A stretch of DNA of 64,000 bases, taken from a phage. Location of the stretch: the NCBI GenBank assembly GCA_014685065.1, contig GCA_014685065.1_3930.1. One strand, 5' to 3'. The notes beneath the pieces were generated by a model. That model was not told the DNA's origin, did no database searches, and was given only the letters and a program-made list of their open reading frames with translations. Made by a program: the position numbers and the translations under genes. The number at the start of each line of letters is the position of its first letter. The stretch's first letter is position 1. Positions 51 to 49,288 of the stretch are shown here, one piece after another.

Positions 51-2195
51 TTACATAGAGACTCTATCACGAATCTCAGCGATTTTTGCATCGTTCATTC
101 GGGATTCACCTTTAATCTTAGTCCATCCAAGATACCCACACACCCTGTTAATCACAGAGATATCATGTGAATGGCAAACCTCACATTCTTCAACATCAGC
201 CTTTGGTCTGTTACCACAATGTTCACAGATTGCTAAGTCAAAGTTAAGTCCCTGATAAAAACCTTTCAACATCCCTCTTGTAATACAACTTTTAAGTGCT
301 GTTAAGTTTTCTGGGTTAGCTACCCTTACATACTGGATTCTGCCACCTCTACAGATATGGAAGAATGGCTCTTCTAAGTCCTGCTTCTCAAATGGTGAGA
401 TGTCTGCTGCAACATTCATATGGAAACTGTTTGTAAAGTATTCCTTGTCAGAGACACCTTTAATAACGCCAAACATATCTCTGAACTGTTTTAGCTGAGT
501 TCCACAAAGTGATTCTGCTGGAGTGCCATATACCGCATACAGGAAACCATCTTCGTTCTTAAACTCTTCAGTTTTCATGTTAATGTATGCCAGAACATCG
601 TATGCAAAACTATAGCTTCCAACTTCATGAAGTCGTTTACCTTCAGCAAGAACAGACAGCTCATCAAGAGCAGTAACCCCAAAAGAAGCTGTGAAGGATT
701 TCACAATATCCCAACCAACCCTGTCAGTAGGTTTCTTATTCCCTTTGTACAGACCACCCTGTGTGAATGCAAGAGGGTTAGAACTTGCTGGCATATTAGC
801 AATCATTTCGTAACGTTTCTTGTGGAAGCTGCGAATCATCTCTAGGTACTTATCAAGCTCTTTCCAGAAGTCTAAACCATTCTCTTTAGAATACTGGTAA
901 ATCATTGGTAAGTTCAAAGATACAGCACCAATGTTAGCACGACCAACGTAGAACTCTTCTCCTTCCTCATTAAGATATGGAGACAAGAAAGCTCTGCAAC
1001 CCATCGGTGAAATAACCTTACCAGAACGCTCAAAAGCCTCTGCTACAGCACCATGACCAGATACACTTAAGAAGTCTGGATACATTGCTTTAGAGCAACA
1101 CTCAATAGCTTTACTGTACAGGTGGCCTTGACAGATATTCTCATCGTGTCTCTTCTGGTCATAAATATAAACCAGTTTAGGGAATACAACAGGCTTCTTG
1201 CTCTTACCTTGTCCATTCATACGAACATCTAGGAGAGTACTTGCAATCATGTATTGCAGTCGGTTATCTTCATTGGACATATCTGAGTCAAGTAACCCGA
1301 ATGTCAAAGTTGTGAATGCAAAATCCCCACGACTACAAGGTACAGTGTTTAGTTTCATTTCAAGTGACTGGAAACCCTGAGTCAGTTCAATCTGTAGCTG
1401 CTCCATGACATAATTGTGGTAATGTTCTTTAGGAATACCATAAGATGCTGCTTTCTCAGCATGATAGTGTAGAGACTTCTTAGCATACGGTACAAGTACC
1501 TTATCAATCTCTGCTAAAGTAAAGCCACCAAATTGCTGTGCAGTTGCTGAAAGAACTACATCACCAATAACCTGTAAGGCTGACAGTACAGACTTCGGTT
1601 CACAATATTCGATGCCAGACATTTCAAAGCCACCTTTCAGGACTTTACCAATGTCAAACAGGCAACAGTTGATACCACCAAAAATTAGGTCTCTTAAATC
1701 ATGGATGTAGATAAACCCTTTTTCAATGGCTTCAAGTTCCTCTGGTGTTAAATGGTACTGTTTAAAGATTTCTTTAGTCAGATAACCACGAATAATTGAA
1801 CCTTTTGTAGAAATTAAACTGCTGTCAAAATTAGCGTTTTCTCGGTCACCTAAGAAGAGTGTATCTTTAGTCTTCTGGTAGAGTTCATCCCAATTTTGAG
1901 CAACCTCTTTACGGTAATTTCTATATGTTGAGTAAGACTCATAAATCTCGTGATTGACTTCTGCCAAAGCACCCTCAACAATACTGTGAATATCATTTAC
2001 CGAAATTAGCAAATTATTCTGCTTAGTGGACTTTACCAGAATCCTCATAAATGCTGACTCAAGAGCTTGAGTAACATCTGGTGGAAGCTCTTTATAACCA
2101 ACTCTGTTAGCTGACTTTGTGACTGCTGCTAAAACTTTTTTGATATCAGGTTCCTCAAGTGAGCCATTCTTTTTAATAATCTGTACTTTGTTCAT
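51..2195 (-). CDS. nrdD: anaerobic ribonucleoside-triphosphate reductase (class III RNR)
   Basis: 714 aa; N-terminal ATP-cone-like region, C-terminal glycyl-radical motif RVCGYLG preceded by a Cys cluster (CEHC...CEVC). Confidence 0.9.
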   Translation of the reverse strand: MNKVQIIKKNGSLEEPDIKKVLAAVTKSANRVGYKELPPDVTQALESAFMRILVKSTKQNNLLISVNDIHSIVEGALAEVNHEIYESYSTYRNYRKEVAQNWDELYQKTKDTLFLGDRENANFDSSLISTKGSIIRGYLTKEIFKQYHLTPEELEAIEKGFIYIHDLRDLIFGGINCCLFDIGKVLKGGFEMSGIEYCEPKSVLSALQVIGDVVLSATAQQFGGFTLAEIDKVLVPYAKKSLHYHAEKAASYGIPKEHYHNYVMEQLQIELTQGFQSLEMKLNTVPCSRGDFAFTTLTFGLLDSDMSNEDNRLQYMIASTLLDVRMNGQGKSKKPVVFPKLVYIYDQKRHDENICQGHLYSKAIECCSKAMYPDFLSVSGHGAVAEAFERSGKVISPMGCRAFLSPYLNEEGEEFYVGRANIGAVSLNLPMIYQYSKENGLDFWKELDKYLEMIRSFHKKRYEMIANMPASSNPLAFTQGGLYKGNKKPTDRVGWDIVKSFTASFGVTALDELSVLAEGKRLHEVGSYSFAYDVLAYINMKTEEFKNEDGFLYAVYGTPAESLCGTQLKQFRDMFGVIKGVSDKEYFTNSFHMNVAADISPFEKQDLEEPFFHICRGGRIQYVRVANPENLTALKSCITRGMLKGFYQGLNFDLAICEHCGNRPKADVEECEVCHSHDISVINRVCGYLGWTKIKGESRMNDAKIAEIRDRVSM

Positions 2196-2219
2196 TATTG
2201 CCCCTTTACATGCTAAAAA

Positions 2220-2235
2220 GGTCTCCGAAGAGACC
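2220..2235 (-). terminator. hairpin with tetraloop between small ORF and nrdD (terminator/attenuator candidate)
   Basis: GGTCTC-cgaa-GAGACC; on the minus strand it is followed by TTTTTA. Confidence 0.4.
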
Positions 2236-2243
2236 CTTTCATT

Positions 2244-2450
2244 TTAAATCTTTTTAGAAAACTTCGCAAAGAGTTCTCTTAGTTTTTCAGTGATACCTAA
2301 CTGTATCTCTAATATTTCGAAGATAACCCATAGTAACATGGCTCCAAACAATGAACCTTGTTCAAAGTCAGTAAATAGGTTAACGATAAGCATACCAATC
2401 ACAATAGCTGGTGCATCAACAACCAAACCTTCCCAAATGCGTTTAAGCAT
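2244..2450 (-). CDS. small hydrophobic protein, unknown function
   Basis: 68 aa ORF with a hydrophobic core (AIVIGMLIVNLF...LLWVIF); ATG start, compact spacing with neighbours. Confidence 0.4.
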   Translation of the reverse strand: MLKRIWEGLVVDAPAIVIGMLIVNLFTDFEQGSLFGAMLLWVIFEILEIQLGITEKLRELFAKFSKKI

Positions 2451-2685
2451 TATTCACCTCTGCCATAAAATTCTGTAGCGTACCAACAGGTTTTAGGTTT
2501 TGCCCATCAGTTTTCATGATGAATGGCATCTGACGAACTGGCATCTGTGCAATATCAATCAGGTCTGATAGTTCATAGTCCTGCCCTAACATTCTCACAA
2601 CATGGTCAATACCACGAGCTTTTGCAAAATTCTTTGCAGTCTCGCACTGAGGGCATCCAGTTTTGGAGTAAATTACATAAGTCAT
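2443..2685 (-). CDS. glutaredoxin/thioredoxin-like redoxin (NrdH/NrdC-like)
   Basis: 80 aa with CPQC active-site motif near the N-terminus; located between nrdD and nrdB. Confidence 0.7.
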   Translation of the reverse strand: MTYVIYSKTGCPQCETAKNFAKARGIDHVVRMLGQDYELSDLIDIAQMPVRQMPFIMKTDGQNLKPVGTLQNFMAEVNNA

Positions 2686-3758
2686 TAAGGAACCTCTAAA
2701 AATCCACTATTCAAATCATCTACAACAGTATTCAATAGGTACGCGCCATTCTGTTGTTCCTGATTAGCATTCTGCTCTTTATCAATTTCCATCTTCTTAA
2801 TCATGTACTTCAAAGGTGGTTCTTTAGGAGCTACAAAATCTCTGGGAATGCCAAACATATCATACAGTGGGGCAGCATTATAGTAAACCCACTCATGAAG
2901 AAGCTTTGTATTTAAGCCAACTACAGCACGTCCTTCGGAGAAGATATAATACGACCATTTCTCTTCACTTTCAACTACTTCATCTAAGATTACTTTAATC
3001 TCTGGAAGAATTTGTTGAAAAGCTTTCTGCCACTCATCATCTCTTAAAGTTTCTTTTAAAACTTCAATATCAATTTTAGTGTGAAGGATTTCATCAAGCA
3101 TAATCTTCTGCACAGCTTGAGCAATACCCTGAAATTTATCTTGAGCATCAAGTGCAAAAGTGCATGCAAAGGATGCCATAAAAGATATACCTTCAAGTGC
3201 AGTCACTGCAAACAGCCCTTTCAGAATCACTTTATGGAAGTGTAAAGGGTCTTTGTCCAGAAGTGAATCACGCACATAACTCAGACGATAGTTTATACCT
3301 TCATCCAGTAATTCTTCAAGAACACGATTCACAGTTTTTAATCGGTCTTGCACAGCAACATTCTGGTTAATCTCATCTAAGATTGTTTCAGGGTTTTTAA
3401 TACATTGCCTTACAATCTCTGAGTAAGTAAGGGCATGTAGGTTTTCAATCTCAGACTGCTTCATAATTGCAGTTGCATAGATGTCATCAGAGATAAATGG
3501 TGCAAAGGCAAATGCCAAGCTCTTAGCAACTTGAGTATCTGCTTCCCACTGCCACTTAAGAATCTCAAGCATTACACCTGACATTGATGCTGGGACACTC
3601 TCAAAATCAAGACGTGATTGTTCAAAAGGGAACTCATCTTCTGACCAGTCTTGTGCTTTTTGTTGTTTATAAAGTTCAAAGATTTTTGGGTAGTGTTTAT
3701 TAAGTGAGTCAAAAGTTTTTCTCTCACCACCTAAAAAGATTGGGTGCTGGTTAATCAT
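2685..3758 (-). CDS. nrdB: ribonucleotide reductase class Ia beta subunit
   Basis: Start trimmed to ATG at 3756-3758 (MINQHPIFLGG...), which overlaps the upstream stop as ATGA. Assigned as R2 subunit from overall sequence character and its position beside nrdA. Confidence 0.85.
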   Translation of the reverse strand: MINQHPIFLGGERKTFDSLNKHYPKIFELYKQQKAQDWSEDEFPFEQSRLDFESVPASMSGVMLEILKWQWEADTQVAKSLAFAFAPFISDDIYATAIMKQSEIENLHALTYSEIVRQCIKNPETILDEINQNVAVQDRLKTVNRVLEELLDEGINYRLSYVRDSLLDKDPLHFHKVILKGLFAVTALEGISFMASFACTFALDAQDKFQGIAQAVQKIMLDEILHTKIDIEVLKETLRDDEWQKAFQQILPEIKVILDEVVESEEKWSYYIFSEGRAVVGLNTKLLHEWVYYNAAPLYDMFGIPRDFVAPKEPPLKYMIKKMEIDKEQNANQEQQNGAYLLNTVVDDLNSGFLEVP

Positions 3759-4012
3759 AGTGTGATTTCTCCTTTCTTTATCATTTCTAAGGCTTGTTTT
3801 CTGTCTAAAACTTCCCAATTTTCTTTGTTAAACATCTCATAAGGTCTTGCGTAGATTTTACCATCTGCTGTAGAGATGTAAGAGATACCAGCAACCCATG
3901 AGTCATCATTTTGTTTTATCATCATGTCTGTGCTACTCACATAGTACATCGTTTTCCGAGGCTTGTGGAGCAAGTATATAGGTCGCTCATGTTTTTCTAT
4001 TAAATCTTTCAT
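3755..4012 (-). CDS. hypothetical protein between nrdA and nrdB
   Basis: ORF trimmed to internal ATG (MKDLIEKHERP...) preceded by GGAGAG; the longer upstream extension overlaps the nrdA 3' end. Confidence 0.4.
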   Translation of the reverse strand: MKDLIEKHERPIYLLHKPRKTMYYVSSTDMMIKQNDDSWVAGISYISTADGKIYARPYEMFNKENWEVLDRKQALEMIKKGEITL

Positions 4013-4067
4013 GGTCTCTCCAAAGTTATTTTTAGAGGGTCTTTTACGACCCTCATAGTTGTTAAAA

Positions 4068-6302
4068 CTAAACACCACAACCCTCGCAATAAGCATCTTG
4101 CAGTGCAGATTTACCTACACCAATGCGACTGTTAAGGTAGTACATGGTTTTCATACCTACCGAGTTGGCATAAATCATGTACTTCAAAGCTTGAGCCAAT
4201 GATACCTTCTTAGCTTTTGCGTAGTCAACATAGAAATCTGAAGAGATAGCTTGACCAGTGAACTTTTGAACAATTGCATAACAATCAATCAGGTCAAAGG
4301 TGTCAATACCCCAAGCAATTTCATATACATACTTCAACTCTTCATAATCTGGAACAATAAACAGTACGTTACCAGTTGCAGACTTTTTAGTTAAAATAAA
4401 GTCACGAATTGGATACAAGCCATTTGTCGTATTGGTTGCCAGTGAAGAACTCTCATTAGGCATGTAAGCTTCTAATACAGAGTTTCGGATTCCACCATTT
4501 TCTTTGATACGTTGTGCTAAGTCATCCCAATCATATCGTAGTTTTGCATCATGCTTTTCATCAATCTTCTTGTTAGCTGTCTTTGGAGGAACCCAGCCTT
4601 CGGGATACTTAGTGAACTTCATGTATTCTGGAACGCCACGCTCTTTAGCAAGTCTCAGCGAGGCTTCATGCAGATAGTAAGAGTGCATCTCTGCAAGTTC
4701 ATGAAGTTTCGTTTTACCTGCTCGTGAAGAGTAGTTCACGTAGTTCTTCGCAAGGTAATGAGCCACATTTGTAAGGCCAATCCCAACAGAACGACGCTTC
4801 TGAACATGGTTACGCATCGACGGATACGGATAATCCATAAGGTCAATAACGGAGTCAACCATTGCAAGAGCATAATAAGCAACGTCAGCGTATTCATCTT
4901 CTGAAATTCTCCCTGCAACCAAACTAGCTAGGAAGCAAAGAGCTACCTCACCATCCTCTTTCACAGCATCATCTCTGTAAAGGTCTGTCTCTTTCTCAAA
5001 GCCGTACACTGGCAACACAATTTCCATACAAAGATTTGACATCTTCAAAGGCTCTTTAAATGGTGTATGTGTGTTTGCATTATTCGTGAAGAATGGGTAC
5101 ACACGGCCTGTTGCATAACGCTGCTGGATAAACAGTTTAGCAATTTCACGAGCCTTTACTCGTCTGTGCTTAACACCTGAATGCACTGCGTGACCAACTG
5201 CCATAGCAAACTCATCAGCAGATGCTGTGTAGAACATGTCATAGAGTTTTGGTGCATCTTTGTAAGAGAATAGCAACCAATCTGTATCATACTGAACACA
5301 CTGCCAGAAATAATCGTTTGTGCCGAATGAGTAGTCCATCTCATTAATACGTTTAGAAGGAACCGTTGTAGGGTGCTTCAAACGCAGTAAATCTTCAATC
5401 TGCGGGTCTAGAGCAGTGTAGAAGTTATTAGCTGAACCACCACGACTCTTCTGTTTGTTTGCCTCTACAGATGAGCGTACAAGCTTGTAATAAGGTAGTT
5501 TACCCATGTGCTCAATAGTATTTTGACGGATACCATCACCAATAGTACGAGTCTCCATCAGCATCCCAATGCCAGCTTGCTTTGTAGTCATATCATAAGC
5601 AACCTTTGCAGCAATACCGAGAGATTCGGCAGTGTCATTTGCCTTAATCAAACAGCATGACGCATAACCTGATTTAGTTGCTCTTAAACCGTTTAAATAT
5701 GGCGTAGGCGCGTTAATCTTCAGGTCAGATAGGTAAGTGTACAGCTTGATAACATCTTGCAGTCTACGGTGCTTTGGTTGCTTCTCAAAGGCTTTCATAG
5801 CCATACCCATGAACATAAATTGTGGTGACTCAAAAAGTCTTCCCGTTTTAATATCACGGATACCATACTTGTCTCTGAACTGTTTCAAGACTGCATAACC
5901 GTAAGAGATATCTTTTGAGTGCACAATGTAACCTTGCAGGTATTCAAGCTCTTCCTGTGAGTAGTCCATCTTCTCCCAAAGTCCTGCTCTCTCCATATTT
6001 TTAACGAAGGTAACCAGCGTAGGAACCTTAGTAAAGCCTCCAAAGGCTTCTTTGTAGATAATACCCAAAAGTAGCCGTCCAGCCATATCTGAGTACTCTT
6101 GAGTTTGTTTATCAACACAAACATCAATCATGGCTTGGTGCATCTCTTTTGTAGTGCAACCCTCATAGACACGTTTCATAGCTTCCATAGTGACTTCTGA
6201 CCAGATAATTCCACGTTTATCTGCCCATGATGCCCACTTATTCAGTCTTTCTGGGTCAAAGCTTACTACTGTACCGTTTGATTTTTTAATTGTCTTAATC
6301 AT
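4068..6302 (-). CDS. nrdA: ribonucleotide reductase class Ia alpha subunit
   Basis: 744 aa; N-terminal ATP-cone-like region; C-terminal tail cysteines (CEGCGV). Confidence 0.9.
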   Translation of the reverse strand: MIKTIKKSNGTVVSFDPERLNKWASWADKRGIIWSEVTMEAMKRVYEGCTTKEMHQAMIDVCVDKQTQEYSDMAGRLLLGIIYKEAFGGFTKVPTLVTFVKNMERAGLWEKMDYSQEELEYLQGYIVHSKDISYGYAVLKQFRDKYGIRDIKTGRLFESPQFMFMGMAMKAFEKQPKHRRLQDVIKLYTYLSDLKINAPTPYLNGLRATKSGYASCCLIKANDTAESLGIAAKVAYDMTTKQAGIGMLMETRTIGDGIRQNTIEHMGKLPYYKLVRSSVEANKQKSRGGSANNFYTALDPQIEDLLRLKHPTTVPSKRINEMDYSFGTNDYFWQCVQYDTDWLLFSYKDAPKLYDMFYTASADEFAMAVGHAVHSGVKHRRVKAREIAKLFIQQRYATGRVYPFFTNNANTHTPFKEPLKMSNLCMEIVLPVYGFEKETDLYRDDAVKEDGEVALCFLASLVAGRISEDEYADVAYYALAMVDSVIDLMDYPYPSMRNHVQKRRSVGIGLTNVAHYLAKNYVNYSSRAGKTKLHELAEMHSYYLHEASLRLAKERGVPEYMKFTKYPEGWVPPKTANKKIDEKHDAKLRYDWDDLAQRIKENGGIRNSVLEAYMPNESSSLATNTTNGLYPIRDFILTKKSATGNVLFIVPDYEELKYVYEIAWGIDTFDLIDCYAIVQKFTGQAISSDFYVDYAKAKKVSLAQALKYMIYANSVGMKTMYYLNSRIGVGKSALQDAYCEGCGV

Positions 6303-6310
6303 TTTTGAAT

Positions 6311-6341
6311 CCTACAGATGAAAAGAGCCTCCGAAGAGGCT
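6311..6341 (-). terminator. candidate rho-independent terminator upstream of nrdA
   Basis: GAGCCTC-cgaa-GAGGCTC hairpin followed on the minus strand by TTTTCATC. Confidence 0.4.
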
Positions 6342-6348
6342 CCCTAGT

Positions 6349-6687
6349 TTAAATCTTGAAAATTTGCTCATTCTGCCACATATCGTAAAACTTATCACTT
6401 ACTTTTGTGACTGAAGAAGTGTGCATACAGTTCAGGGAGAACCATGATGATGTATTATCATCCATAAGTGTTTCAAGTTTTTGTGTAACGTTCACATCCA
6501 TGTCTGCAACAACGTAATTGCCTCGCATCTTGCAAACAATTCTTCCAAACAAGATTGCACTTCTACCTCTTCGGTCATCACAGTACATAACTGTGTCCCC
6601 GTGCTTAACATCTTGTCCGAGGCTGTCAACGCCTAACTTAGCACCTGAGACAATATCATCATAAGATAGCTTTTTTGCTTTAGACAC
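6349..6687 (-). CDS. hypothetical protein
   Basis: 112 aa ORF in the minus-strand gene train; no recognisable motif. Confidence 0.45.
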   Translation of the reverse strand: MSKAKKLSYDDIVSGAKLGVDSLGQDVKHGDTVMYCDDRRGRSAILFGRIVCKMRGNYVVADMDVNVTQKLETLMDDNTSSWFSLNCMHTSSVTKVSDKFYDMWQNEQIFKI

Positions 6688-7012
6688 GGTATTTCTCCAA
6701 GTTTCTTTTTAGATATAACCAACCATAGTCAGTCCTTTCTACACCCATAAAGAGTGGAGCCATCACAACTTTACCGAAAGTATTCCTGTGTTGGCAGATT
6801 TCAAAGGAATATTCTTTCTCAATATCAATCCCATATTTGTACAGGACTGCTTTTAAAACTTGTTCATTGTCCAGAAGTGTATCTGGAGTCTCACCATATT
6901 TTTCTAGTAACGGGTCATTCATGAACACCGTCATAGAAATATTGTAGTTTGAGAAGTGGCTCTTCTGAGCCACACCCTCTTTATTAATGTTCTGTGAATC
7001 CATTATAACCAA
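6680..7012 (-). CDS. hypothetical protein
   Basis: 110 aa ORF overlapping neighbours by a few nt (operon-like packing). Confidence 0.45.
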   Translation of the reverse strand: MVIMDSQNINKEGVAQKSHFSNYNISMTVFMNDPLLEKYGETPDTLLDNEQVLKAVLYKYGIDIEKEYSFEICQHRNTFGKVVMAPLFMGVERTDYGWLYLKRNLEKYRV

Positions 7013-7739
7013 CCCCTTTTAACCAGCACTTCAGGTTATTAGCATCATAATTCAGTTTCGGGTATGAGGTTACATGGAACTGCTCACCATCATAATAGAC
7101 AATATCTGCAATCCATAGTCCATTCTCTTTACAGAAGTCTTTATCTGCTTTAGAGGTAATTGGATTAACTTCTACAAAACCATCTACACCCAAATCCTTT
7201 AAACTATCTACAATACCTTTGCAGATAACGCATGTCTCAGATACTACCACAAAAAGTTCTTGGCTTTCAAGTTCTACAATGTATTCACCAAGCTGTACTT
7301 TAGGGAGATTCGATTGCTTCATAATCTTCCCATCTGCTGCACGAACAATGGCATACCACTCTTTACCATCAACTACTGACATTCTGATAATACACTCTTG
7401 ACCAGTACGCTTCTCAATATCTGCAAGACGTTTTAAAGCTTCTTCATAGTCATCTGTGTACTTCAGGTCATTATTACGGCAAACAGCTTTCATAGCACCG
7501 TTATGGTCATGTTGTGACAGGTAAATCAAACCGTCAAGAACATATTGCAAATCTGCCTGAGCATCCAGTGTCTCAATGGGGTCTTTCTCTTCAATTGCTT
7601 TTACAAGCTCTTTTGCTTCTTCCAGCATACACAGAGACTGGGATTTTAAAGATTCCCAATACTCATCACTGTAAGGTTGCTTTTGAGTGTTTCCACAACG
7701 AAGATTCCAGTTTTTTACTGCTTCTCTTGAGTTAAACAT
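6984..7739 (-). CDS. hypothetical protein with possible MazG-like NTP pyrophosphohydrolase N-terminal region
   Basis: 251 aa; N-terminal acidic helix pattern LEEAKELVKAIEEKD...DLQYVLDGL is reminiscent of MazG-type pyrophosphatases. Weak, by eye only. Confidence 0.35.
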   Translation of the reverse strand: MFNSREAVKNWNLRCGNTQKQPYSDEYWESLKSQSLCMLEEAKELVKAIEEKDPIETLDAQADLQYVLDGLIYLSQHDHNGAMKAVCRNNDLKYTDDYEEALKRLADIEKRTGQECIIRMSVVDGKEWYAIVRAADGKIMKQSNLPKVQLGEYIVELESQELFVVVSETCVICKGIVDSLKDLGVDGFVEVNPITSKADKDFCKENGLWIADIVYYDGEQFHVTSYPKLNYDANNLKCWLKGVGYNGFTEH

Positions 7740-7977
7740 TTGGACTCCTTAAAAATCTGTTAACCTTTAGCTCTCGTGTTTCAATATATTCCAGATGCTC
7801 ACGTAGCTCTTGGCGTTTAAGCATTAGATGCTGCATTTGTGATTCAACAGCTTCAACTTCTTTAATTATTGACTCTCTAGCATTTGCAAGAATGCGCTCA
7901 AGTTCTTCAATCTTACTGTCAACTTTTGCTACATGACTCACAGCTTTACTTTTGTTAAACATTTTATTCTCTCTCAA
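7732..7977 (-). CDS. hypothetical coiled-coil protein
   Basis: 81 aa, charged heptad-like sequence. Confidence 0.4.
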   Translation of the reverse strand: MRENKMFNKSKAVSHVAKVDSKIEELERILANARESIIKEVEAVESQMQHLMLKRQELREHLEYIETRELKVNRFLRSPNV

Positions 7978-7983
7978 TAGTTA

Positions 7984-8481
7984 TCAAGCACAATTTGCTT
8001 TCATTACCTTATGGATTCTTTTTTCAGCATCTTCATAAGTTTCTTTAGTAATAAACTTAATTGCTGCAATATTGGCATTGTAGAAGAGTCTGAGCTTCGA
8101 GTCAATCCTTTTTGTCATTACATCGAATTTATGTTGAAGGTTTGCTTCACCATAGACTAGGCCACCTTTTGTGTAGTAGGTTTGGATAATGTAAAAGTCA
8201 AAAAATTCTTTTCCAAAGCTCTCAATATCTTTTTTAATATACTCAGAAGAGGTTTCGTAAGTCATCCAATCACTTTCCTTAGTGACTACCTTCTTCCGAG
8301 TCTTCCCAGCAACTTTTCTTTTGGTCACACTGTTAAGCTGTTTCTTTCCAATATAATATTGTCCAGTCTTCTTACAGTGTACTAAATAGACAAAGCCAAA
8401 ATGTTTAGTGGGGTCAACTTCCCCACATAAAGATACCCAATGACCATAGGTAGGGCAATTGCCAAATCCTTTAATCTTCAT
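7984..8481 (-). CDS. putative GIY-YIG-like nuclease domain protein
   Basis: 165 aa; FVYLVHCKKTGQYYIGKK resembles the GIY-(10-11)-YIG motif; basic C-terminal half. Confidence 0.35.
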   Translation of the reverse strand: MKIKGFGNCPTYGHWVSLCGEVDPTKHFGFVYLVHCKKTGQYYIGKKQLNSVTKRKVAGKTRKKVVTKESDWMTYETSSEYIKKDIESFGKEFFDFYIIQTYYTKGGLVYGEANLQHKFDVMTKRIDSKLRLFYNANIAAIKFITKETYEDAEKRIHKVMKANCA

Positions 8482-9511
8482 TCATACACGGCTCCCAATT
8501 ATATTTCTTAAAAGAGAAATTATCTTTTGGATTTCTCTCTTGATACGCTATCCAGAAATGCTGTTCCATTAACTCTAATGGTGTTTTGGTAACAGTCTGT
8601 CCATCCCATGACACATAGGTATAAGAGTCTTTTTTAGCATAAAGTTCATAGATAGCATCAAGACACTCTTTGTAGGTCTCTTTACCATCTAAAGCATTCA
8701 TCACAGCTACTTTACCAGCCCCTTTTAGGCCGAAGTAGTTGTCTGCATTGTCTCCAGCAACAGCCTGATAACACAAGAATTTAAAACCTACACCAACTGT
8801 TTTTGCAGCTTTTGGTTTTGATTTGATAGGACAATCCCAGATATCACCAACATTATTATCAGCAATAAAAATTAGTGGTGATTTTTCATAAGTCATATCA
8901 ATACAATAAGTTCCTTCAGCTTGTCGAAGGTCTTTGTCAATACTCATAAGAGCAGCTTTCTTACCCATCTTTTCAGCTTTAGCAATTACGATTGAATCGG
9001 CTTCGAATCCTCCCTTTAAGAGTTTGAACTCTGGTCTTGACAGAAGATACTCACGACAAGCAACTAAGTGTGTTGGTGTGACAGCATCTTTACGGTTCCC
9101 TTGATATTGGTGCTCAAGACCTTTAATGTCTTTATGTTTATGCACACCTTTCTCTGTTAAATAGCCTACCCAAGTTCTTTCTTTACCAACAATCTTAAGC
9201 CATTCCTGAAGCACCTGTTGAGTAGCCATGATAGCTTCTTTTTCACTCTTAGCTTCTTTCCAAGTCTGTCTTTCCCATTCATCTTCATCAAATGTCAGGC
9301 CAAGTTCTTCCACAAGGATTCTCTGGTCTGCTAACCATCTTGCAGCATCTTTCGCATTATCAAATGGCTCAGATTCTTCTGCTGTGAGTTTATTGACGTA
9401 TTTATATTTTGATTTCTCAACTACACAAGCACCTTTATAGGCAATACTGTCAGAGTCAATAAAAACATGTGTAACTGAATCGGGAAGTTTTGTTAATGTG
9501 TACTTCTCCAT
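8471..9511 (-). CDS. 5'-3' exonuclease / flap endonuclease (T7 gp6-like)
   Basis: 346 aa; acidic motifs FIDSDSIAY, SIDKDLRQ and GDNADNYFG match the PIN-like 5'-3' exonuclease family. Confidence 0.8.
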   Translation of the reverse strand: MEKYTLTKLPDSVTHVFIDSDSIAYKGACVVEKSKYKYVNKLTAEESEPFDNAKDAARWLADQRILVEELGLTFDEDEWERQTWKEAKSEKEAIMATQQVLQEWLKIVGKERTWVGYLTEKGVHKHKDIKGLEHQYQGNRKDAVTPTHLVACREYLLSRPEFKLLKGGFEADSIVIAKAEKMGKKAALMSIDKDLRQAEGTYCIDMTYEKSPLIFIADNNVGDIWDCPIKSKPKAAKTVGVGFKFLCYQAVAGDNADNYFGLKGAGKVAVMNALDGKETYKECLDAIYELYAKKDSYTYVSWDGQTVTKTPLELMEQHFWIAYQERNPKDNFSFKKYNWEPCMNED

Positions 9512-9527
9512 TATGGCTCTCCATATG

Positions 9528-9556
9528 AAAAAGCCCCATACGGAGTACAGGGCTTT
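9528..9556 (-). terminator. weak terminator candidate between SSB and exonuclease genes
   Basis: GCCC...GGGGC hairpin followed on the minus strand by TTTTT. Confidence 0.3.
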
Positions 9557-9572
9557 AAAGTAACTTTAGAGA

Positions 9573-10430
9573 TTAATCTTCTGTATCGAAGTCTTCATCC
9601 TCTTCGTCATCTGGGTCTGGCAAATCTTCATCATCACCATCATCAGAATCATTCGAAGATTTATGGTCTGTTGCGTCTTCTTCAGTGATTTCACCGTTAT
9701 CTTCGACACCATCAAGACCAAGCATAGCCAGTTCATCTTCATCCAGTTCAGGTTCACCATTAGCACCGTTACCACCAGTGTAAGGTACAAGAGTATCAAT
9801 GATAAACTGTTCCTGAATAGGTTTAGTCAGAACATTGTTCTCAAAAGTGTAGAAGTGAGTAGAAAGAATCACACTACCAAAAGAACCGTTACCAACTGCA
9901 ATATCTGGATGAATTACATCATAGTTCTTATCATCTTCATGCTTATCAGATGCTTGAGCTTTGATTTTCTTCATCGGCTGTTTAACAGCTACACGTTTAC
10001 CGTTTACTTCTTCAATCAGCATTACAGGGAATGACTGTTTAGCTGTCCATACAGCACCATCTTTATAAGCTGCTGCACGACTTACTTTCAAGATGTAGTA
10101 AGTGTCTGCTTCAAAAGGTGGTTTGCAGCCAAACTTCTCTTCGAAGTCATCTGCATCAACTGCTTCAGTAGTAACTTTATCCCAACCCTCTGGGTTCTTC
10201 TTAGACTTAGTAAACTCTTTAAAGAGTTTGTTACCGTCTTCTGCCAGAATTGATACGCTGTAGTTACAATCTTTTCCTGGGAATTTCTTGTCAATAGACT
10301 TACCTTTTCCCGGACGTGGTGAAGTGTTCAGGTAATAAAACCAGACATCTTTCAGCAGGTAACGCAGAGTTTGACGTTCAGTACCGTTGTACTTCTCTAC
10401 CGGAGCTTTCATTTTAACAACTTTAGACAT
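9573..10430 (-). CDS. single-stranded DNA-binding protein (T7 gp2.5-like)
   Basis: 285 aa with a strongly acidic C-terminal tail ending DEEDEDFDTED; sits inside the replication module. Confidence 0.6.
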   Translation of the reverse strand: MSKVVKMKAPVEKYNGTERQTLRYLLKDVWFYYLNTSPRPGKGKSIDKKFPGKDCNYSVSILAEDGNKLFKEFTKSKKNPEGWDKVTTEAVDADDFEEKFGCKPPFEADTYYILKVSRAAAYKDGAVWTAKQSFPVMLIEEVNGKRVAVKQPMKKIKAQASDKHEDDKNYDVIHPDIAVGNGSFGSVILSTHFYTFENNVLTKPIQEQFIIDTLVPYTGGNGANGEPELDEDELAMLGLDGVEDNGEITEEDATDHKSSNDSDDGDDEDLPDPDDEEDEDFDTED

Positions 10431-10466
10431 TATTTAAACCTCTATCTCAATTTATGAAGAGTACCA

Positions 10467-10495
10467 ATTCTAATTTGTTGATACTCTATTGTCAA
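10467..10495 (-). promoter_or_regulatory. sigma70-like promoter for the SSB gene
   Basis: On the minus strand: TTGACA - 17 nt - TAGAAT, about 40 nt upstream of the SSB start. Confidence 0.5.
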
Positions 10496-10502
10496 ATACT
10501 AA

Positions 10503-42487: not shown

Positions 42488-43591
42488 TTAGCCTTGAGCG
42501 TCAGCACGAACATCTACCAGCAACTGAGGACGAGTACAGTATGGCAGCATGTAAGAGTGAGCTTCGAAGTCAATACCTTCGTCACGGTCTTTTTCGTATT
42601 CGAATACGTATAGTTCCTGACCAAGTGTATTTGCATAACCCATCTTAGGACATGGGCCGTATGCAACTTCAAAGATGTTGTTAGCTTCACCCAACATAGA
42701 TACGTTAGGGAAAGCGTGCCCTACACCAACGTCTGCACCAGCACCATCAATGCTAACCAGAGTATGAACCTTACCACGCTTGTCTTTAAACTTACCGTTA
42801 TACTGGACAAACTTAACGCCACCGTAGTAGAAAGTGTTCATGTGAGCCTGAACGCCGTCGGCACCACCAGTTCTCAGAGAACCAGTAATCTGTTGCCAAG
42901 CCAGCGGAGTCTGCTGTGCAAGATAAGCATCACGAATCTTAGGGTGCTTAGTCAGTTTGCTGAAGAATACACGGTCAACAACTACGTGAATTTCTTCACC
43001 GTTGATTACAGTGCCAGTCTTAGCTTCATCTTCCATGTGCATACGCAGTTCTTCAATAGAAGCGTCGATGTCAGCATTAGGGTTGTCAAGGTCGAAGTAA
43101 ATAGTCTTCTTCTCAACGTCGAACTGCTTGTACAGGTCAGCGTACAGAGTACCACGAGCATCAACAACTTTACCCTTCAGAGCTTGCATAAACAGGAACT
43201 CACGAGTAATATCGAACTTGGTACGAATCTTCATCAGCTTCTTGGCACGTACTACAGCTTCAGTAGTCAGTTCGTTTGCAGTGCCTGGCTGACGTACACC
43301 CTGAATCTCATCAGGAGTAATGCTTTCAACTTCTTTGAAGTACATCATTGGGAAGCTGATTTGACGAACACGCTCAGGTGCGCTAGTCTCTGCTTTACGG
43401 CTATCACGGTCTACCGCATCAAGCAAGCTAACATCCCAATCAGTCAAGTCCATAAGGAAAGTAGTTTGGGTGATTGGTGCTGAACGGAATAGACCTAAGT
43501 TGGAAATATACCCATAAGTATTTGGAATAGACTGGACTTCACCAGTCAGGTCAGCAAGGAAAAATCTGCTTTTTTCAGAATTAGTCAACAT
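42488..43591 (-). CDS. major capsid protein (lambda gpE-like)
   Basis: 367 aa; C-terminal region FEAHSYMLPYCTRPQLLVDVRADAQG resembles the lambda E-family C-terminus; preceded by D-like and protease genes. Confidence 0.8.
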   Translation of the reverse strand: MLTNSEKSRFFLADLTGEVQSIPNTYGYISNLGLFRSAPITQTTFLMDLTDWDVSLLDAVDRDSRKAETSAPERVRQISFPMMYFKEVESITPDEIQGVRQPGTANELTTEAVVRAKKLMKIRTKFDITREFLFMQALKGKVVDARGTLYADLYKQFDVEKKTIYFDLDNPNADIDASIEELRMHMEDEAKTGTVINGEEIHVVVDRVFFSKLTKHPKIRDAYLAQQTPLAWQQITGSLRTGGADGVQAHMNTFYYGGVKFVQYNGKFKDKRGKVHTLVSIDGAGADVGVGHAFPNVSMLGEANNIFEVAYGPCPKMGYANTLGQELYVFEYEKDRDEGIDFEAHSYMLPYCTRPQLLVDVRADAQG

Positions 43592-43624: not shown

Positions 43625-44002
43625 TTACAGGCCAGTTGGTACGAAATCAATACCTTTAGCAGCCAGAGCTGTCTTGACTGCATCAGCATCAACACCTGAT
43701 TCAAGAGTAAGCAGGTCTTTTAGTTCTGCGTCACGGTAAATACCAACAACTTTCAACTGACCGTGGTAAGACAGTTGTAGGTCTGCGTAAAAGTTAACGA
43801 TACATACAGAATCAGCCTGAGCTTCTTCCCCTGCTGCAACTTTAGTACCATCTGCTTTCAGGACTTCACCTACACGGTATTCTATTGAAGCAACTGGAGT
43901 GTACTCTTTGCGAGAGTGACCTGTTGGGGTAACCTGTTCCCAAAGAATGATATCATTCAGAGGTTCTCTTTTACCTAAGTGAGTAAAACCTTCATATGCC
44001 AT
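43625..44002 (-). CDS. putative head decoration protein (lambda gpD-like)
   Basis: 125 aa immediately upstream of the major capsid gene. Confidence 0.45.
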   Translation of the reverse strand: MAYEGFTHLGKREPLNDIILWEQVTPTGHSRKEYTPVASIEYRVGEVLKADGTKVAAGEEAQADSVCIVNFYADLQLSYHGQLKVVGIYRDAELKDLLTLESGVDADAVKTALAAKGIDFVPTGL

Positions 44003-44013: not shown

Positions 44014-45360
44014 TTATTTGATAAGAGATTTTAGAGCATTCTGGAGAGCCAGTTTGCGTTGTTCAGCGGTGTCTTCGGAAGCATTCTTAGCTGGTTCTTT
44101 TTCTTCTTCAACCAAATCAGCTTCGCCGTCATTACCCATTTCTTCCATAGCATTAGAATGTTCAAGAACAGCACCAGCAGTTTCTTTCAGCTTGGTAATT
44201 TCTGATTCTTTTTCTTCCATTGCAGAAGCATGGGACGCGATAGTTTCATTAAGTTTCTGGTTAGCACCTTCCATAGCATTCATAAACAGAACGCTCAGAG
44301 GGTTATCAAGACCAGCACCTAAAATAGTCGTTGCAGCTTCTTTTGCATCAAACCCAAAAGCTTCAGCAGAAGCAGAAATCTTATTAGTCAAATCTGACAA
44401 AGCAGCTTCCTGTTCTTTAGCTTTCATTTGAGCAACCTGAAGACGCAAAGCTTCTAGTTCTTGCTTTTCTTGTTCAGTCATTTCTTCACCTGAATTGTTA
44501 ACGTTTAAACTTACAGGAGCCTCTTCAGAACCTTGTAAGTAATTTAAGAAATCATCTTGAGACATGATTGAGTTAATTAAACCAAGTTCAAGAGCTTCCT
44601 GAGCAGAATAAACATTCGCCTCAGTATTCTTTACAGCTTCTTCAGAGAGATTACGAGATTCAGCTACAAAACCTGTAAAGGTTGCGTAGGTATCATTAAT
44701 TCTCTTTTGAAGTCTTTCTTTGCTTTCTTCTGAAAGTGCTTGGAATGGTGAACCCATACCTTTAAACTCACCAGCTTTGATGACGTTAATTGTTACGCCA
44801 TTCTTTTCAAATGCCTTAGTTAATTCCTGATGAACCATGATTACACCAATAGAACCAACATCTGCATCTGGTGATGCAATAATTTCTTCAGCAGAAGATG
44901 CAAGAGCGTATGCAGCGGAACAAGCGAACTCATCTACATAAGCAATAATTTTCTTTTGGCCTCTTGAAGCCATAATGTGACGTGCTAATTCAAAGCAACC
45001 TGAAGCTTCACCACCACCAGAATCGATGTGCAGAACAATAGTCTTGATTGACTCATCTGCTAAAGCTTCGTCAAAGCCTCTACGCAAACCTTCATAAGAG
45101 CTTAATCCACCTGTACACATTGCATCAATGAATGTCATACGATGGGTTAAACCACCCATAATAGGGATAATAGCAATGTCATCTTTCACTTTTAAAAGAC
45201 TTCTTGCTTCACCTTTGGGTTTATCAAAGTTTACTGCTGCTTGGACATCACCCAGCAATCTGTTATTCACATAAGTTGCTGCTGAGTGAGCTAATGATTC
45301 AGTGGCTAGTAAAGGTTGGTTGAATAATCTATCAGCAAGTCTGAAGATATTCGAACTCAT
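44014..45360 (-). CDS. prohead protease (S49/SppA family) fused to scaffold-like C-terminal region
   Basis: 448 aa; N-terminal half has S49-like segments (IVLHIDSGGGEASG, FACSAAYALASSA); C-terminal half is a charged coiled coil. Confidence 0.8.
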   Translation of the reverse strand: MSSNIFRLADRLFNQPLLATESLAHSAATYVNNRLLGDVQAAVNFDKPKGEARSLLKVKDDIAIIPIMGGLTHRMTFIDAMCTGGLSSYEGLRRGFDEALADESIKTIVLHIDSGGGEASGCFELARHIMASRGQKKIIAYVDEFACSAAYALASSAEEIIASPDADVGSIGVIMVHQELTKAFEKNGVTINVIKAGEFKGMGSPFQALSEESKERLQKRINDTYATFTGFVAESRNLSEEAVKNTEANVYSAQEALELGLINSIMSQDDFLNYLQGSEEAPVSLNVNNSGEEMTEQEKQELEALRLQVAQMKAKEQEAALSDLTNKISASAEAFGFDAKEAATTILGAGLDNPLSVLFMNAMEGANQKLNETIASHASAMEEKESEITKLKETAGAVLEHSNAMEEMGNDGEADLVEEEKEPAKNASEDTAEQRKLALQNALKSLIK

Positions 45361-45704: not shown

Positions 45705-46204
45705 TAATTAAACCTTACTTTTTGTTTAAGGACTGTTGAATGGTTACCAGATTCATCTACCACATTTACAATCATATCATATACTTTGCCTTTGACAAGT
45801 ACTTTGTAATCATTTTGTGAAAAAATGTATTCAAGTCTGTTTGTTTCTTTATTAACTGTCATTGGAGATTGAAATGCAGTGTCGAGGGTAATGAAAGCGG
45901 CTTCAATGCTATTAACATTGATACGTTTATTCTCGCAGTTATATAACTTTACACCCAAAAGGCATGAACTGTCAAATGGAATTTTAACAATTTCACTACA
46001 ATTTCCTAAAATAAACGGTTTTCCACTCATTGGTGCATCAAGTAACCTGCAAATAGTGAAAACGTCAGAGGTTCCACCATCACTTACATAACCTGAAAGG
46101 CTGACCCTTGAGCCAGCCTCTACAGATAATTTGTCAGTGATAATAAGAACACCTCTATACGAATGCACTCGTGTAGCATTTGAAATAGAGATAACTTCAG
46201 CCAT
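45704..46204 (-). CDS. hypothetical head-associated protein
   Basis: 166 aa between portal and protease genes. Confidence 0.4.
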   Translation of the reverse strand: MAEVISISNATRVHSYRGVLIITDKLSVEAGSRVSLSGYVSDGGTSDVFTICRLLDAPMSGKPFILGNCSEIVKIPFDSSCLLGVKLYNCENKRINVNSIEAAFITLDTAFQSPMTVNKETNRLEYIFSQNDYKVLVKGKVYDMIVNVVDESGNHSTVLKQKVRFN

Positions 46205-47670
46205 TATTTATTTGCCTTATTTGCTGTGCTTGGGTCTTTCGCTGAAGGTGTCTTTGCAGTACCTTCTCCAGCGGTCTTATAACCATCTCCTGAACGGCTT
46301 TGACTATTTGGAGAAAGCTTTTCAGATACTGGCTGAGACTCATCAGCAGGAGGAAGACCAATATGCTCTCTAAGCTTGTTAGATAGCTCTTTGTCAACTT
46401 CCAAAGCACCTACTGCAACAGTCTTCTGGATATAAGAACCAATTGCTTCAAGGTCTGGAGTTTCGATATCATCATATGTGATTTGTACATGTTCTTCATC
46501 ATCCCACATATTAAGAGCATAAGTCTGTGCAACTAAATCACGGTTAATTACGTTCTTAATTTGCTTCAGCAGAATATCCACTGACATTGCTAGTAAGCTT
46601 GTCTTAGAATCTGCAAGAGAGAATGAACCGTATTTTGACTGACCCATAGCAAGAACATCTGACATGAATGCCATCATAATCTGCTTGGAATATCTGTCAA
46701 TAATAGAACCTGTATCATATGCTTTAGCACCCTGTCTAGAAACTAATGAGAACTCGAAAATATCCTCTTTAGTATCTGGGTCGATATATCTAGGCCAGAT
46801 TAAACCTGCTCTATCATTAGCAATCATATCGTTAACAACAGTTTTGCAGTATTGTACGAAAGCTTTCTTTTCAGGTTCTGCATTTTCATCCAGATAATCT
46901 GGTGGTAAACCAATCTTTGGCATACCTACCAAGTCTCTTGAAACACCAACGGCTTCGTACTCTTCAATCTGAACTTTATACTTCCACGGTACATAGGCAT
47001 TAAGTAATGGTGAACGACCTTCTGGGTTTCCATATTCATCATCATACTTAAACAGCATGAATTTAGCTCGTGGAAGTTTTCTTGTTAGTGGCCTTTCTCC
47101 GAGATTAATTGCCCCAGCAATATGTGAAACATTTCTCAGATTCTGTCTAACACCAGTAACTTTTCTAAAGTCTTCGTCAAAATACCACTTATCAAGTGTT
47201 GATTGGTTTCTGATTGGTAATTTAGCCCATCCAATTAGACCATCATCAAATTTTGACTGGTACTTTCCTTTTTTACCCTGTCGCTTCTTATAAACTTTCT
47301 CGTTAACACAGAACCCATAAGTGCAGAATGACATTACAGAATTAATAAAATCTGCCCAATCATGCTCCATGTCATCCATTAAAGAATTAAAGAAGTCTGC
47401 TCTTTCAAGCATTTTAGGGTCTTGCTCTTTTCCCTTTGGAGGTACGAATCTCCAGTTGACTTTTCTGACAAACATCTTAATAATATTTACAGATGCTGCT
47501 ACAGCAGGGTCACGCATCATTAATTGGAAAGTTTTAATACTTTCAGGGAACCTTAGTGCCTGACGAGGTTCTTCATAGATTCTTCCATTCTTAACCTTCA
47601 GACCCAAAGAACCTACTTCACCCATTCTAAATGGTGGTAAGCTTTCTTGTGTTTCTGTAATATCTGCCAT
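46204..47670 (-). CDS. portal protein
   Basis: Start trimmed to ATG at 47668-47670 (RBS AGGTGAG); about 488 aa; directly downstream of the terminase large subunit gene. Confidence 0.75.
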   Translation of the reverse strand: MADITETQESLPPFRMGEVGSLGLKVKNGRIYEEPRQALRFPESIKTFQLMMRDPAVAASVNIIKMFVRKVNWRFVPPKGKEQDPKMLERADFFNSLMDDMEHDWADFINSVMSFCTYGFCVNEKVYKKRQGKKGKYQSKFDDGLIGWAKLPIRNQSTLDKWYFDEDFRKVTGVRQNLRNVSHIAGAINLGERPLTRKLPRAKFMLFKYDDEYGNPEGRSPLLNAYVPWKYKVQIEEYEAVGVSRDLVGMPKIGLPPDYLDENAEPEKKAFVQYCKTVVNDMIANDRAGLIWPRYIDPDTKEDIFEFSLVSRQGAKAYDTGSIIDRYSKQIMMAFMSDVLAMGQSKYGSFSLADSKTSLLAMSVDILLKQIKNVINRDLVAQTYALNMWDDEEHVQITYDDIETPDLEAIGSYIQKTVAVGALEVDKELSNKLREHIGLPPADESQPVSEKLSPNSQSRSGDGYKTAGEGTAKTPSAKDPSTANKANK

Positions 47671-47686
47671 TCTTCTCACCTAGCTA

Positions 47687-49288
47687 TCAACGTCTAAGCC
47701 CCTCATATGGGTTTCCTCTCACTAAATCTGTGTGAGCACCCATTGATGGTGGCTTGAATAATTTAACTTCGTTAAGACTGTTGAAAGCATCACTGGTAGC
47801 ATCCACTTGGTCATCTTTAGTTTTACCGTCACCACAAAAGCCTTCAAGTTCTTGAAAGTAAGCTTCATTCCAACTACCTCTCAAGACTTTTACAAGTCCA
47901 GCTTCAGAAGCAGCAGAAAATCCCGCAAAGCGGGTAACTTTATCTTTATTTGTTGGTTTGGCTCTTGCTCGATAACCTTTCTCGGCAAGTTTCCTGATGA
48001 GGGATGTTGCGTAGGATTTACCAGCAGCGCCTGGGTCTTGAGGGATAAAAATACCAGTTCGCTTACCGTCACTTTCAGCAGTCAAATTAATTTGTGTTTC
48101 GACTCCAGAGGGTCTATCTCTAAATCTTACTACATCAATGATATAATAGCAACCGTCTTTTTTAGATTTACCCATCTTAACACCTGCTGTCCAGTCTGGA
48201 TTAGGGTTAATCTCAGATGGTAAAGTTGCTGCTAAGTCCCATGCTCTAACATCAAATACATCTTCTGGGAGTGAATCAACAATTTCACACCATTGTCTTT
48301 GCCAATAGTTTGAACCTTCTGCACGAGCCTTCCAGTTACCGAAACGAAGTCTTGCAACGTTTACAGGAGTGTTGTTTTCCAACTTACCACGGTACTTAGG
48401 CTCTAAGAAGTCAAGGATTGGGTTATCATCAATCGTACCAGAAATAAAGGTGTATGTTTGAGGAATCTCAAGGGGGAACATTTCAAGAATCTTGTCTCTC
48501 TCCCAATCAGAAACCATCACGCCATCGTGCATTACATACCAACGAATACGACCACATTTTTCAGGGTCTGGGTAGCCTTCTTCATCTAAGAATGGCTCTA
48601 CCCAATCGTAAATAAAGTGGTCTCTGTCTGGGTTCATGGAAATCTTCATGTATGAATCGCCTTCAGCACCAGAACGTAGACGGGTTTGTAGGTATGAAAT
48701 CTGTGAAGCAGAGAAGTGTGTACCTTCGTCAAAGTAAATAGCTGAGTATTCAATACCCTGATGACCTTCAGCGTGCTTTTCAAGTTCTAGGTAGGTAAAC
48801 TTGATAGTTGCCCCAGAAGGGAATGTGATAGTCATTTTCTGCTCGTGAGGAATCCCACCAAACTTACCAAATAGTTTCTTTGCAGCAGGCCATAAACCAC
48901 CTTGTAACTGTGTTGTATTTCGACGGAAATATACAGCATTATAGTTAGGGTCTTCAATAAATCTTAAAGAGTCCATTAACAATGCGGCAGTCTTACCAGC
49001 ACCAGCAGCACCACCATAGAGAACCAAGTCAGCATTAGTATTTAAAAAGACCTCTTGAGAACCCGGCTGAGGGGCTACATAGTTCTTATCAGTCATCAAT
49101 TTAAAGATAAGGCGAACTTGGTCTGGTGTGTATCTTAATAAAGTCAGAATTTGAGTTGGAAGGAATTTAGAGGGGTCTTTACCGAATGATTTAATAATTT
49201 CTTTTACTTCATCAGAAAGCCCCAACTCTCCAGCTAGGACTTTCCTAACATCTTCCACTCGCTTCTGCTTAACAGCATTTAAGTCCAT
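47687..49288 (-). CDS. terminase large subunit
   Basis: Start set at ATG 49286-49288 behind a GGAGG RBS (track start is TTG); Walker A GGAAGAGKTAA; about 533 aa. Confidence 0.85.
   Translation of the reverse strand: MDLNAVKQKRVEDVRKVLAGELGLSDEVKEIIKSFGKDPSKFLPTQILTLLRYTPDQVRLIFKLMTDKNYVAPQPGSQEVFLNTNADLVLYGGAAGAGKTAALLMDSLRFIEDPNYNAVYFRRNTTQLQGGLWPAAKKLFGKFGGIPHEQKMTITFPSGATIKFTYLELEKHAEGHQGIEYSAIYFDEGTHFSASQISYLQTRLRSGAEGDSYMKISMNPDRDHFIYDWVEPFLDEEGYPDPEKCGRIRWYVMHDGVMVSDWERDKILEMFPLEIPQTYTFISGTIDDNPILDFLEPKYRGKLENNTPVNVARLRFGNWKARAEGSNYWQRQWCEIVDSLPEDVFDVRAWDLAATLPSEINPNPDWTAGVKMGKSKKDGCYYIIDVVRFRDRPSGVETQINLTAESDGKRTGIFIPQDPGAAGKSYATSLIRKLAEKGYRARAKPTNKDKVTRFAGFSAASEAGLVKVLRGSWNEAYFQELEGFCGDGKTKDDQVDATSDAFNSLNEVKLFKPPSMGAHTDLVRGNPYEGLRR

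Follow-up and report, generated by a model that had tools for sequence, protein, structure and literature searches.

A 64-kb phage DNA stretch with T4-, T7- and lambda-related modules has the published layout of Felixounavirus and encodes a predicted enlarged gp2.5/Enc34-type single-stranded DNA-binding protein

We analyzed a contiguous stretch of 64,000 nucleotides of phage DNA (contig GCA_014685065.1_3930.1 of the GenBank assembly GCA_014685065.1; hereafter the window), and its sequence indicates that it almost certainly makes up about three-quarters of the genome of a virulent myovirus that belongs to Felixounavirus, a genus of the Felix O1-like phages (Ounavirinae). An earlier reading of the letters and open reading frames (ORFs) alone had described, in positions 51-49288, a T4-like set of nucleotide-metabolism genes, a T7-like replisome, a lambda-like head and a contractile tail, and had judged their combination with a set of about 27 tRNA genes to be unusual. 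The gene classes it named are all present, as seen in Pfam and PDB searches and in direct comparisons, and its identifications are almost all correct. However, more than 200 deposited Felixounavirus genomes share this combination together with its gene order, and it was published in 2010; the claim of unusualness is therefore refuted. The sequence-only reading had itself named relatives forming a well-described genus as the finding that would overturn it, and megablast, synteny and the literature all reveal precisely such relatives. One of its more specific calls, a gp2.5-like single-stranded DNA-binding protein (SSB) encoded at 9573-10430 on the minus strand, is borne out by profile and fold evidence, although no sampled database record gives the gene a function.

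Genus membership emerges directly from the comparisons made here. Megablast of three sections of the window (1-25000, 26000-50000 and 49000-64000) against 50,697 phage records recovered 280, 339 and 317 matching records, respectively; of these, 204, 242 and 198 match over 80% or more of the query, and most of them are 90-99% identical to it. The top matches for each section reach 94-97% nucleotide identity across 95-100% of the query with conserved gene order. These top matches are felixounaviruses of Escherichia, Salmonella and Shigella, including Felix O1, wV8-like phages, AYO145A and VpaE1, of which AYO145A, VpaE1 and Felix O1 are species classified by the International Committee on Taxonomy of Viruses (ICTV). 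As measured on the 64-kb window only, the similarity falls within the ICTV genus boundary, set at 70% nucleotide identity or more across the length of the genome. In gene order and content the window is of the Felix O1 type, being gene-for-gene collinear with the RefSeq genome of Felixounavirus AYO145A (NC_028825.1; Ounavirinae). A blastn alignment with this genome leaves only four segments of 54-545 nucleotides uncovered, namely 18144-18344, 26593-26727, 53339-53883 and 54678-54731; the first of these sits just downstream of the DNA polymerase gene, and the second is likewise a short segment without alignment. The window is transcribed in four blocks (minus strand, 1-15121; plus, 15349-26321; minus, 26397-57257; plus, 57877-64000), and while its guanine-plus-cytosine (GC) content is uniform throughout, at 0.365-0.43, the GC skew tracks the direction of transcription. 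The same gene order, strand blocks, modules and GC content of about 39% characterize Felix O1, wV8, AYO145A, VpaE1 and Bas63, from which the window departs only by strain-level differences in the number of tRNAs, an HNH insert and the repeat count of a Hoc-like protein.

For the best single relatives, the product of identity and coverage is about 0.91-0.95 for each section of this 64-kb partial genome, and the phage may accordingly be a separate species within Felixounavirus. Three limits attach to this placement. The window accounts for about 64 kb of a genome expected to measure 83-90 kb, and the similarity figures are for the window and not for the whole genome; over long stretches, identity to any database genome peaks at about 97%, and the phage may sit at or just below the 95% species threshold; and the functional roles proposed for its modules derive from homology. 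We encountered no evidence contradicting genus membership. Taking the two more specific proposals jointly, we consider it quite probable that this isolate, which may represent a new Felixounavirus species, encodes at 9573-10430 an enlarged SSB of the gp2.5/Enc34 superfamily, and that with this protein the T7-type replisome of Ounavirinae myoviruses is complete.

Placement in a neighboring genus of the Ounavirinae, such as Mooglevirus, Suspvirus or Kolesnikvirus, rather than in Felixounavirus proper, has in its favor that these genera share the architecture and that their SSB homologs also match that of the window. However, the top nucleotide matches, at 94-96%, are the ICTV Felixounavirus species AYO145A, VpaE1 and Felix O1, and the SSB is at least 98% identical in most Felixounavirus records, as against 88-94% in the Moogle-, Sf14- and SUSP-type phages and about 45% in Erwinia phages. 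We regard this placement as highly improbable. The view implicit in the sequence-only reading, that the window represents a novel mosaic lineage born of recent hybridization between T4-, T7- and lambda-like phages and lacking described relatives, draws on the genuine observation that the nearest characterized relatives of the modules lie in different model phages. It is rendered extremely improbable by the more than 200 deposited genomes with the identical combination and order at 94-97% nucleotide identity, and by the fact that the combination has been in print since 2010. Moreover, the similarity of the window proteins to those of T7 and lambda is either 21-33% or undetectable, which points to ancient shared ancestry rather than recent exchange. 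That the assembly might be a chimera joining contigs of different phages, a notion fed only by the mixed affinities of the modules, has a practically negligible probability, as individual complete genomes align collinearly with the window through every module boundary and its GC content is uniform (0.365-0.43). Both the recent-hybrid and the chimera explanations were rejected because of this collinearity with hundreds of genomes. On the Felixounavirus reading, the way in which the modules are combined is ancestral and conserved throughout the Ounavirinae lineage, and not the outcome of recent or unusual recombination.

Felixounavirus is a well-studied genus, with hundreds of members sequenced and virion structures solved, and it is used in Salmonella typing and biocontrol. 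The combination of gene modules in the window is already known as its long-published standard layout. The Felix O1 genome paper of 2010 (PMC3185647) described an exonuclease, aerobic and anaerobic ribonucleotide reductases, glutaredoxin, dihydrofolate reductase (DHFR), deoxynucleoside monophosphate (dNMP) kinase and thymidylate synthase; a ligase, a polymerase closest to podovirus polymerases including that of T7, and a gp4-type primase-helicase; an S49 protease, a portal resembling gp29 of Mu, and the large terminase TerL without a recognizable TerS; and a P2 gpV-like baseplate protein, T4 gp37-like fibers and 22 tRNAs. A passage of the same paper states that genes modifying the host RNA polymerase are absent from Felix O1. 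A comparative study found the genus to be highly conserved, with 17-23 tRNAs by tRNAscan (PMC8300805), and the electron cryomicroscopy paper on Bas63 resolved the virion and explicitly discussed structural mosaicism (PMC12609058). Being a hallmark already in print for this genus, the architecture has little discovery value, and the practical gain lies in annotation.

The replication genes are the following.

8471-9511, minus strand: 5'-3' exonuclease distantly related to T7 gp6 (phrog_107 exonuclease, 3e-63).
9573-10430, minus strand: predicted SSB of the gp2.5/Enc34 superfamily with a disordered acidic C-terminal tail (285 amino acids; profile and fold evidence).
10905-12896, minus strand: bifunctional primase-helicase of the T7 gp4 type (Pfam Toprim_2 and DnaB_C).
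15349-18078, plus strand: family-A DNA polymerase (Pfam DNA_pol_A, 5e-15), with T7 gp5 as the closest solved relative.
19407-20543, plus strand: ATP-dependent DNA ligase, not detectably T7-like (Pfam DNA_ligase_A_M and OB_2).

The SSB gene lies between those for the exonuclease and the primase-helicase, and its identity was not apparent from simple searches: Pfam yielded no function, its PHROGs match (phrog_3877) is of unknown function, a single-sequence search of the PDB came back empty, and a shallow first profile (A1) retrieved nothing meaningful from the PDB. A hidden Markov model search of 1.84 billion representative proteins recovered 66 relatives, mostly of 200-245 amino acids. Of the 52 sequences in the deeper alignment (A2), six match the Pfam family SBB_T7 and three match Enc34_ssDNA-bd. 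It took this deeper profile to reach the structure of T7 gp2.5 (1je5), with E = 3e-8 across a region spanning the conserved GNGS motif, and hhalign pairs the SSB with T7 gp2.5 at a probability of 96.3%. An AlphaFold2 model built from 12 close homologs was unusable (mean predicted local distance difference test score, pLDDT, of 43.4), whereas the model built with the 52 diverse sequences attained a mean pLDDT of 84.8, with values above 93 for residues 1-210 and a disordered tail. In a Foldseek search with the latter model, the nine best PDB matches are all DUF2815 proteins, the Enc34 SSB, T7 gp2.5 or a related phage protein. The protein displays the features of the gp2.5 type, namely an oligonucleotide/oligosaccharide-binding (OB) fold, a long alpha-helix and, at the C terminus, an acidic tail bearing an aromatic residue, here an invariant phenylalanine; the tail is extremely acidic (...DDGDDEDLPDPDDEEDEDFDTED). 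These lines of evidence support the prediction that the product of 9573-10430 is the gp2.5-type SSB of the replisome. It differs from its characterized counterparts in size: T7 gp2.5 has 232 amino acids and is not detected by pairwise BLAST, the Enc34 and DUF2815 chains have 166-179 residues, and the 285-residue window protein is about 50-100 residues longer than the gp2.5, Enc34 and DUF2815 proteins. The protein is encoded by 302 phage records, and all 60 records sampled across the ranking label it "hypothetical" or "gp066" or leave it without annotation. We found no paper in the literature assigning a function to this gene, and the main text of Lopes et al. 2010 (PMC2896510) makes no mention of Felix O1, wV8 or Ea21-4. 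We see this assignment as a useful annotation of a conserved "hypothetical protein" and not as a discovery.

Direct BLASTP comparison of the window proteins with those of T7 and lambda upholds the T7-like description of the polymerase, primase-helicase and gp6-related exonuclease, but not that of the ligase, which has no BLASTP similarity to T7 gp1.3. The primase-helicase, which combines Toprim and DnaB-family helicase domains in a single chain as in gp4, has T7 gp4 as its best PDB match (2e-40) and is 28% identical to it over 599 amino acids (E = 2e-44). The polymerase matches only T7 gp5 chains in the PDB (4e-11), and the exonuclease domain as well as the polymerase domain aligns with gp5 at about 22% identity (E = 1e-12 and 1e-4); its residues 21-298 align with the N-terminal region of gp5 and residues 486-838 with the polymerase domain, in keeping with a family-A polymerase bearing an N-terminal 3'-5' exonuclease domain. 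The exonuclease can be assigned to the gp6 type with weak support, as it has no Pfam match, is 21% identical to T7 gp6 over 221 amino acids (E = 3e-6 pairwise, 4e-5 against the small T7/lambda set), and in a sequence search of the PDB finds only a non-significant match to the 5'-nuclease region of Taq polymerase (E = 0.35). Thus, the window shares with T7 the four-component logic of gp4, gp5, gp2.5 and gp6, but at identities of 21-28%, with a polymerase of 909 rather than 704 amino acids and with a ligase unrelated to gp1.3. Furthermore, T7 is a podovirus, whereas the T7-type replisome of the window belongs to a myovirus. By analogy with the characterized homologs, from which the infection roles proposed here for all modules are drawn, the helicase-primase, polymerase and acidic-tailed SSB would work together as a compact replisome, with the gp6-like exonuclease and the ligase processing primers and nicks.

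The T4-like repertoire of nucleotide-metabolism enzymes (nrdD, nrdA, nrdB, dNMP kinase, DHFR and thymidylate synthase) claimed by the sequence-only reading is confirmed by Pfam. These genes and their neighbors are as follows.

51-2195, minus strand: NrdD, the large subunit of anaerobic ribonucleotide reductase (Pfam NRDD, 2e-114, with ATP-cone and glycine-radical domains).
2443-2685, minus strand: glutaredoxin (Pfam Glutaredoxin, 6.5e-7), labeled as such in AYO145A.
2685-3818, minus strand: NrdB, the small subunit of class Ia ribonucleotide reductase (Pfam Ribonuc_red_sm, 2e-34).
4068-6302, minus strand: NrdA, the large subunit of class Ia ribonucleotide reductase (Pfam Ribonuc_red_lgC, 2e-90, plus lgN).
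6984-7739, minus strand: MazG-like nucleotide pyrophosphohydrolase (Pfam PRA-PH, 5e-6; MazG-like pyrophosphatase in RefSeq).
7984-8481, minus strand: SegE-like GIY-YIG homing endonuclease (Pfam SegE_GIY-YIG, 9e-28).
13092-13835, minus strand: dNMP kinase (Pfam DNMK, PF21448, 6e-21).
24266-24811, plus strand: DHFR (Pfam DHFR_1, 1e-21).
24813-25712, plus strand: thymidylate synthase, ThyA (Pfam Thymidylat_synt, 6e-73).

The nrdD gene is syntenic with gp060 of AYO145A, and the real start of NrdB is probably about 60 nucleotides downstream of the mechanically called TTG start, as in relatives (a relative's coding sequence has 1074 nucleotides). At the level of Pfam families, the repertoire equals that of the T4 precursor enzymes (NrdA/B/D, Td, Frd and gp1), including the phage-type dNMP kinase PF21448. 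Unlike in T4, the precursor genes are split into two separated blocks and accompany a T7-type replisome. No sign of the modified-base pathway of T4 was found, although no search aimed at it was made. The reductases, together with glutaredoxin, DHFR, ThyA, dNMP kinase and the MazG-like enzyme, would supply deoxynucleoside triphosphates under both aerobic and anaerobic conditions. We observed that the GIY-YIG endonuclease gene and the beginning of the exonuclease gene overlap, and that the endonuclease bears the label "NAD synthetase" in its RefSeq relative.

The head genes recall those of lambda only in part.

42488-43591, minus strand: major capsid protein of the HK97 fold and the Pfam E family (Phage_cap_E, 1.9e-78, cut-off 22.9 bits; PDB 9ncf_A, 9e-245).
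43625-44002, minus strand: head decoration protein, probably a beta-tulip trimer (full-length match to PDB 9ncf_J, "Head stabilization/decoration protein", 3e-72).
44014-45360, minus strand: S49 head-maturation protease of the lambda gpC type (Pfam Peptidase_S49, 5e-39).
46204-47679, minus strand: portal protein of the Mu gp29 type (Pfam Portal_Mu, 2e-26).
47687-49303, minus strand: large terminase of the T4 gp17 type (Pfam Terminase_6N, 2e-43; Terminase_6C, 4e-33).
58883-59767, plus strand: immunoglobulin (Ig)-domain protein (Pfam Ig_3, Ig_2 and I-set), a "tail protein" in relatives.

The protease, decoration and capsid trio keeps the C-D-E order of lambda, and to this extent the head is indeed lambda-like. 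The protease is 33% identical to lambda C over 254 amino acids (BLASTP, E = 1.6e-37), as befits a gpC-type enzyme. The capsid protein is a gpE-family member at the level of the Pfam profile, with pairwise BLAST to lambda E being negative. The decoration protein, which is likely to be the functional equivalent of lambda gpD, shows no Pfam match, no BLAST similarity to lambda D, and a weak match to the head-decoration family phrog_2680 (2e-5). In this regard, the Dec protein of Bas63 has been placed in the beta-tulip class alongside the decoration protein of lambda, with a divergent alpha-domain topology (PMC12609058). The lambda likeness does not extend to the remaining genes: the portal is of the Mu type, the terminase is of the T4 type with no Nu1-like small subunit recognized, neither lambda A nor lambda B shows BLAST similarity that would indicate a gpA-Nu1-type terminase or a gpB-type portal, and there is an extra Hoc-like hexamer decoration. 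The latter is a feature of Bas63, whose additional Hoc-like Ig-domain decoration binds the hexamer centers (PMC12609058), and the product of 58883-59767 looks like this protein, being matched to it by the description in that paper and not by sequence comparison. It has 294 amino acids against 377 in AYO145A, which equates to one internal repeat of about 250 nucleotides fewer. The capsid and decoration proteins and the tail sheath match solved virion chains of Bas63 (9NCF, 9MT4) and Sf14 (9C2D, 9C39) with E = 3e-72 to 1e-294. By extension from homologs, the S49 protease would mature the HK97-fold capsid, which the beta-tulip trimers and the Hoc-like Ig protein would stabilize, and the T4-type terminase would package DNA through the Mu-type portal. 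In AYO145A (RefSeq) and phrog_4146, the decoration protein goes by the name of "tail protease", apparently a misannotation that is spreading.

The contractile tail of the sequence-only reading is likewise confirmed by PDB and Pfam matches.

26397-28781 and 28828-30015, minus strand: two tail-fiber genes with T4 gp37/gp10 domains (Pfam gp37_trimer, 2e-62; gp37_C; Gp10_C).
30018-35806, minus strand: baseplate module (Pfam; RefSeq wedge, hub and spike labels at syntenic positions).
31180-32649, minus strand: Baseplate_J protein (Pfam).
33068-33691, minus strand: spike protein (Pfam).
35009-35806, minus strand: Dit-like protein (Pfam).
35806-38034, minus strand: tail tape measure protein (Pfam TMP_3, 2e-17; full-length match to phrog_4036).
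38748-39194, minus strand: tail tube protein (Pfam KPP10_Orf10, 3e-7; phrog_280), immediately downstream of the sheath gene.
39210-40562, minus strand: contractile tail sheath (PDB 9mt4_Q, 1e-294; 9c39_H, 7e-259).

The sheath additionally matches the remoter sheath proteins of Pam3 and phi92 in the PDB. With sheath, tube, tape measure and a J/V-type baseplate (TMP_3, Baseplate_J, Dit_like and Gp10_C/gp37 domains being present), all the hallmarks of a contractile tail are found, and such a tail with T4-like long fibers would deliver the genome. An endolysin is also recognized in the window by a Pfam match.

We also found a tRNA cluster and associated genes just beyond 49288, where the earlier description ended.

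49733-55224, minus strand: cluster of 26 tRNA genes (ARAGORN), among which lie small ORFs and an HNH endonuclease gene.
55390-56805, minus strand: DUF2828/DUF7788 protein of 471 amino acids adjoining the tRNA cluster, an "RNA-binding protein" or "vWFA protein" in relatives.
56886-57257, minus strand: DUF5681 protein, next after the DUF2828/DUF7788 gene.

The count of about 27 tRNAs was close, with ARAGORN calling 26, of which 24 pass the Rfam gathering score; the two that do not are tRNA-Tyr(gta) at 54581-54668 and the second tRNA-Met(cat) at 54892-54968, both on the minus strand. The Tyr copy is marked as a pseudo-tRNA in relatives. The felixounaviruses C600M2 and CL1 also have 26 tRNAs by ARAGORN (PMC8759396), whereas the same cluster in AYO145A has 20 annotated tRNAs, with Ser-gct, Ser-tga, Arg-tct, Met, Asn and Met being the six of the window left unannotated there. 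These approximately 26 tRNAs probably aid the translation of phage genes of 39% GC in hosts of about 50% GC; a passage of the Felix O1 paper ties the tRNA set to the difference in codon usage between phage and host (PMC3185647). AYO145A lacks the 545-nucleotide segment 53339-53883, which is flanked by tRNA-Ile and tRNA-Met. This segment occurs in 47 phage records, carries the annotation HNH endonuclease in Felix O1 and seems to be a mobile element inside the tRNA cluster. The mechanically called ORF at 53383-54027, which overlaps the flanking tRNAs, has no Pfam match.

Several product names that spread through RefSeq and PHROGs are misleading: the head decoration protein is called "tail protease", the GIY-YIG endonuclease "NAD synthetase" and the apparent Hoc-like decoration "tail protein". 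One further ORF also carries a structural label.

13897-14697, minus strand: acidic ORF of 266 amino acids inside the replication module, called "minor tail protein" (phrog_4251, RefSeq).

This ORF has no Pfam match and matches no solved PDB chain, even though the Bas63 and Sf14 virions are deposited, and the structural label is doubtful.

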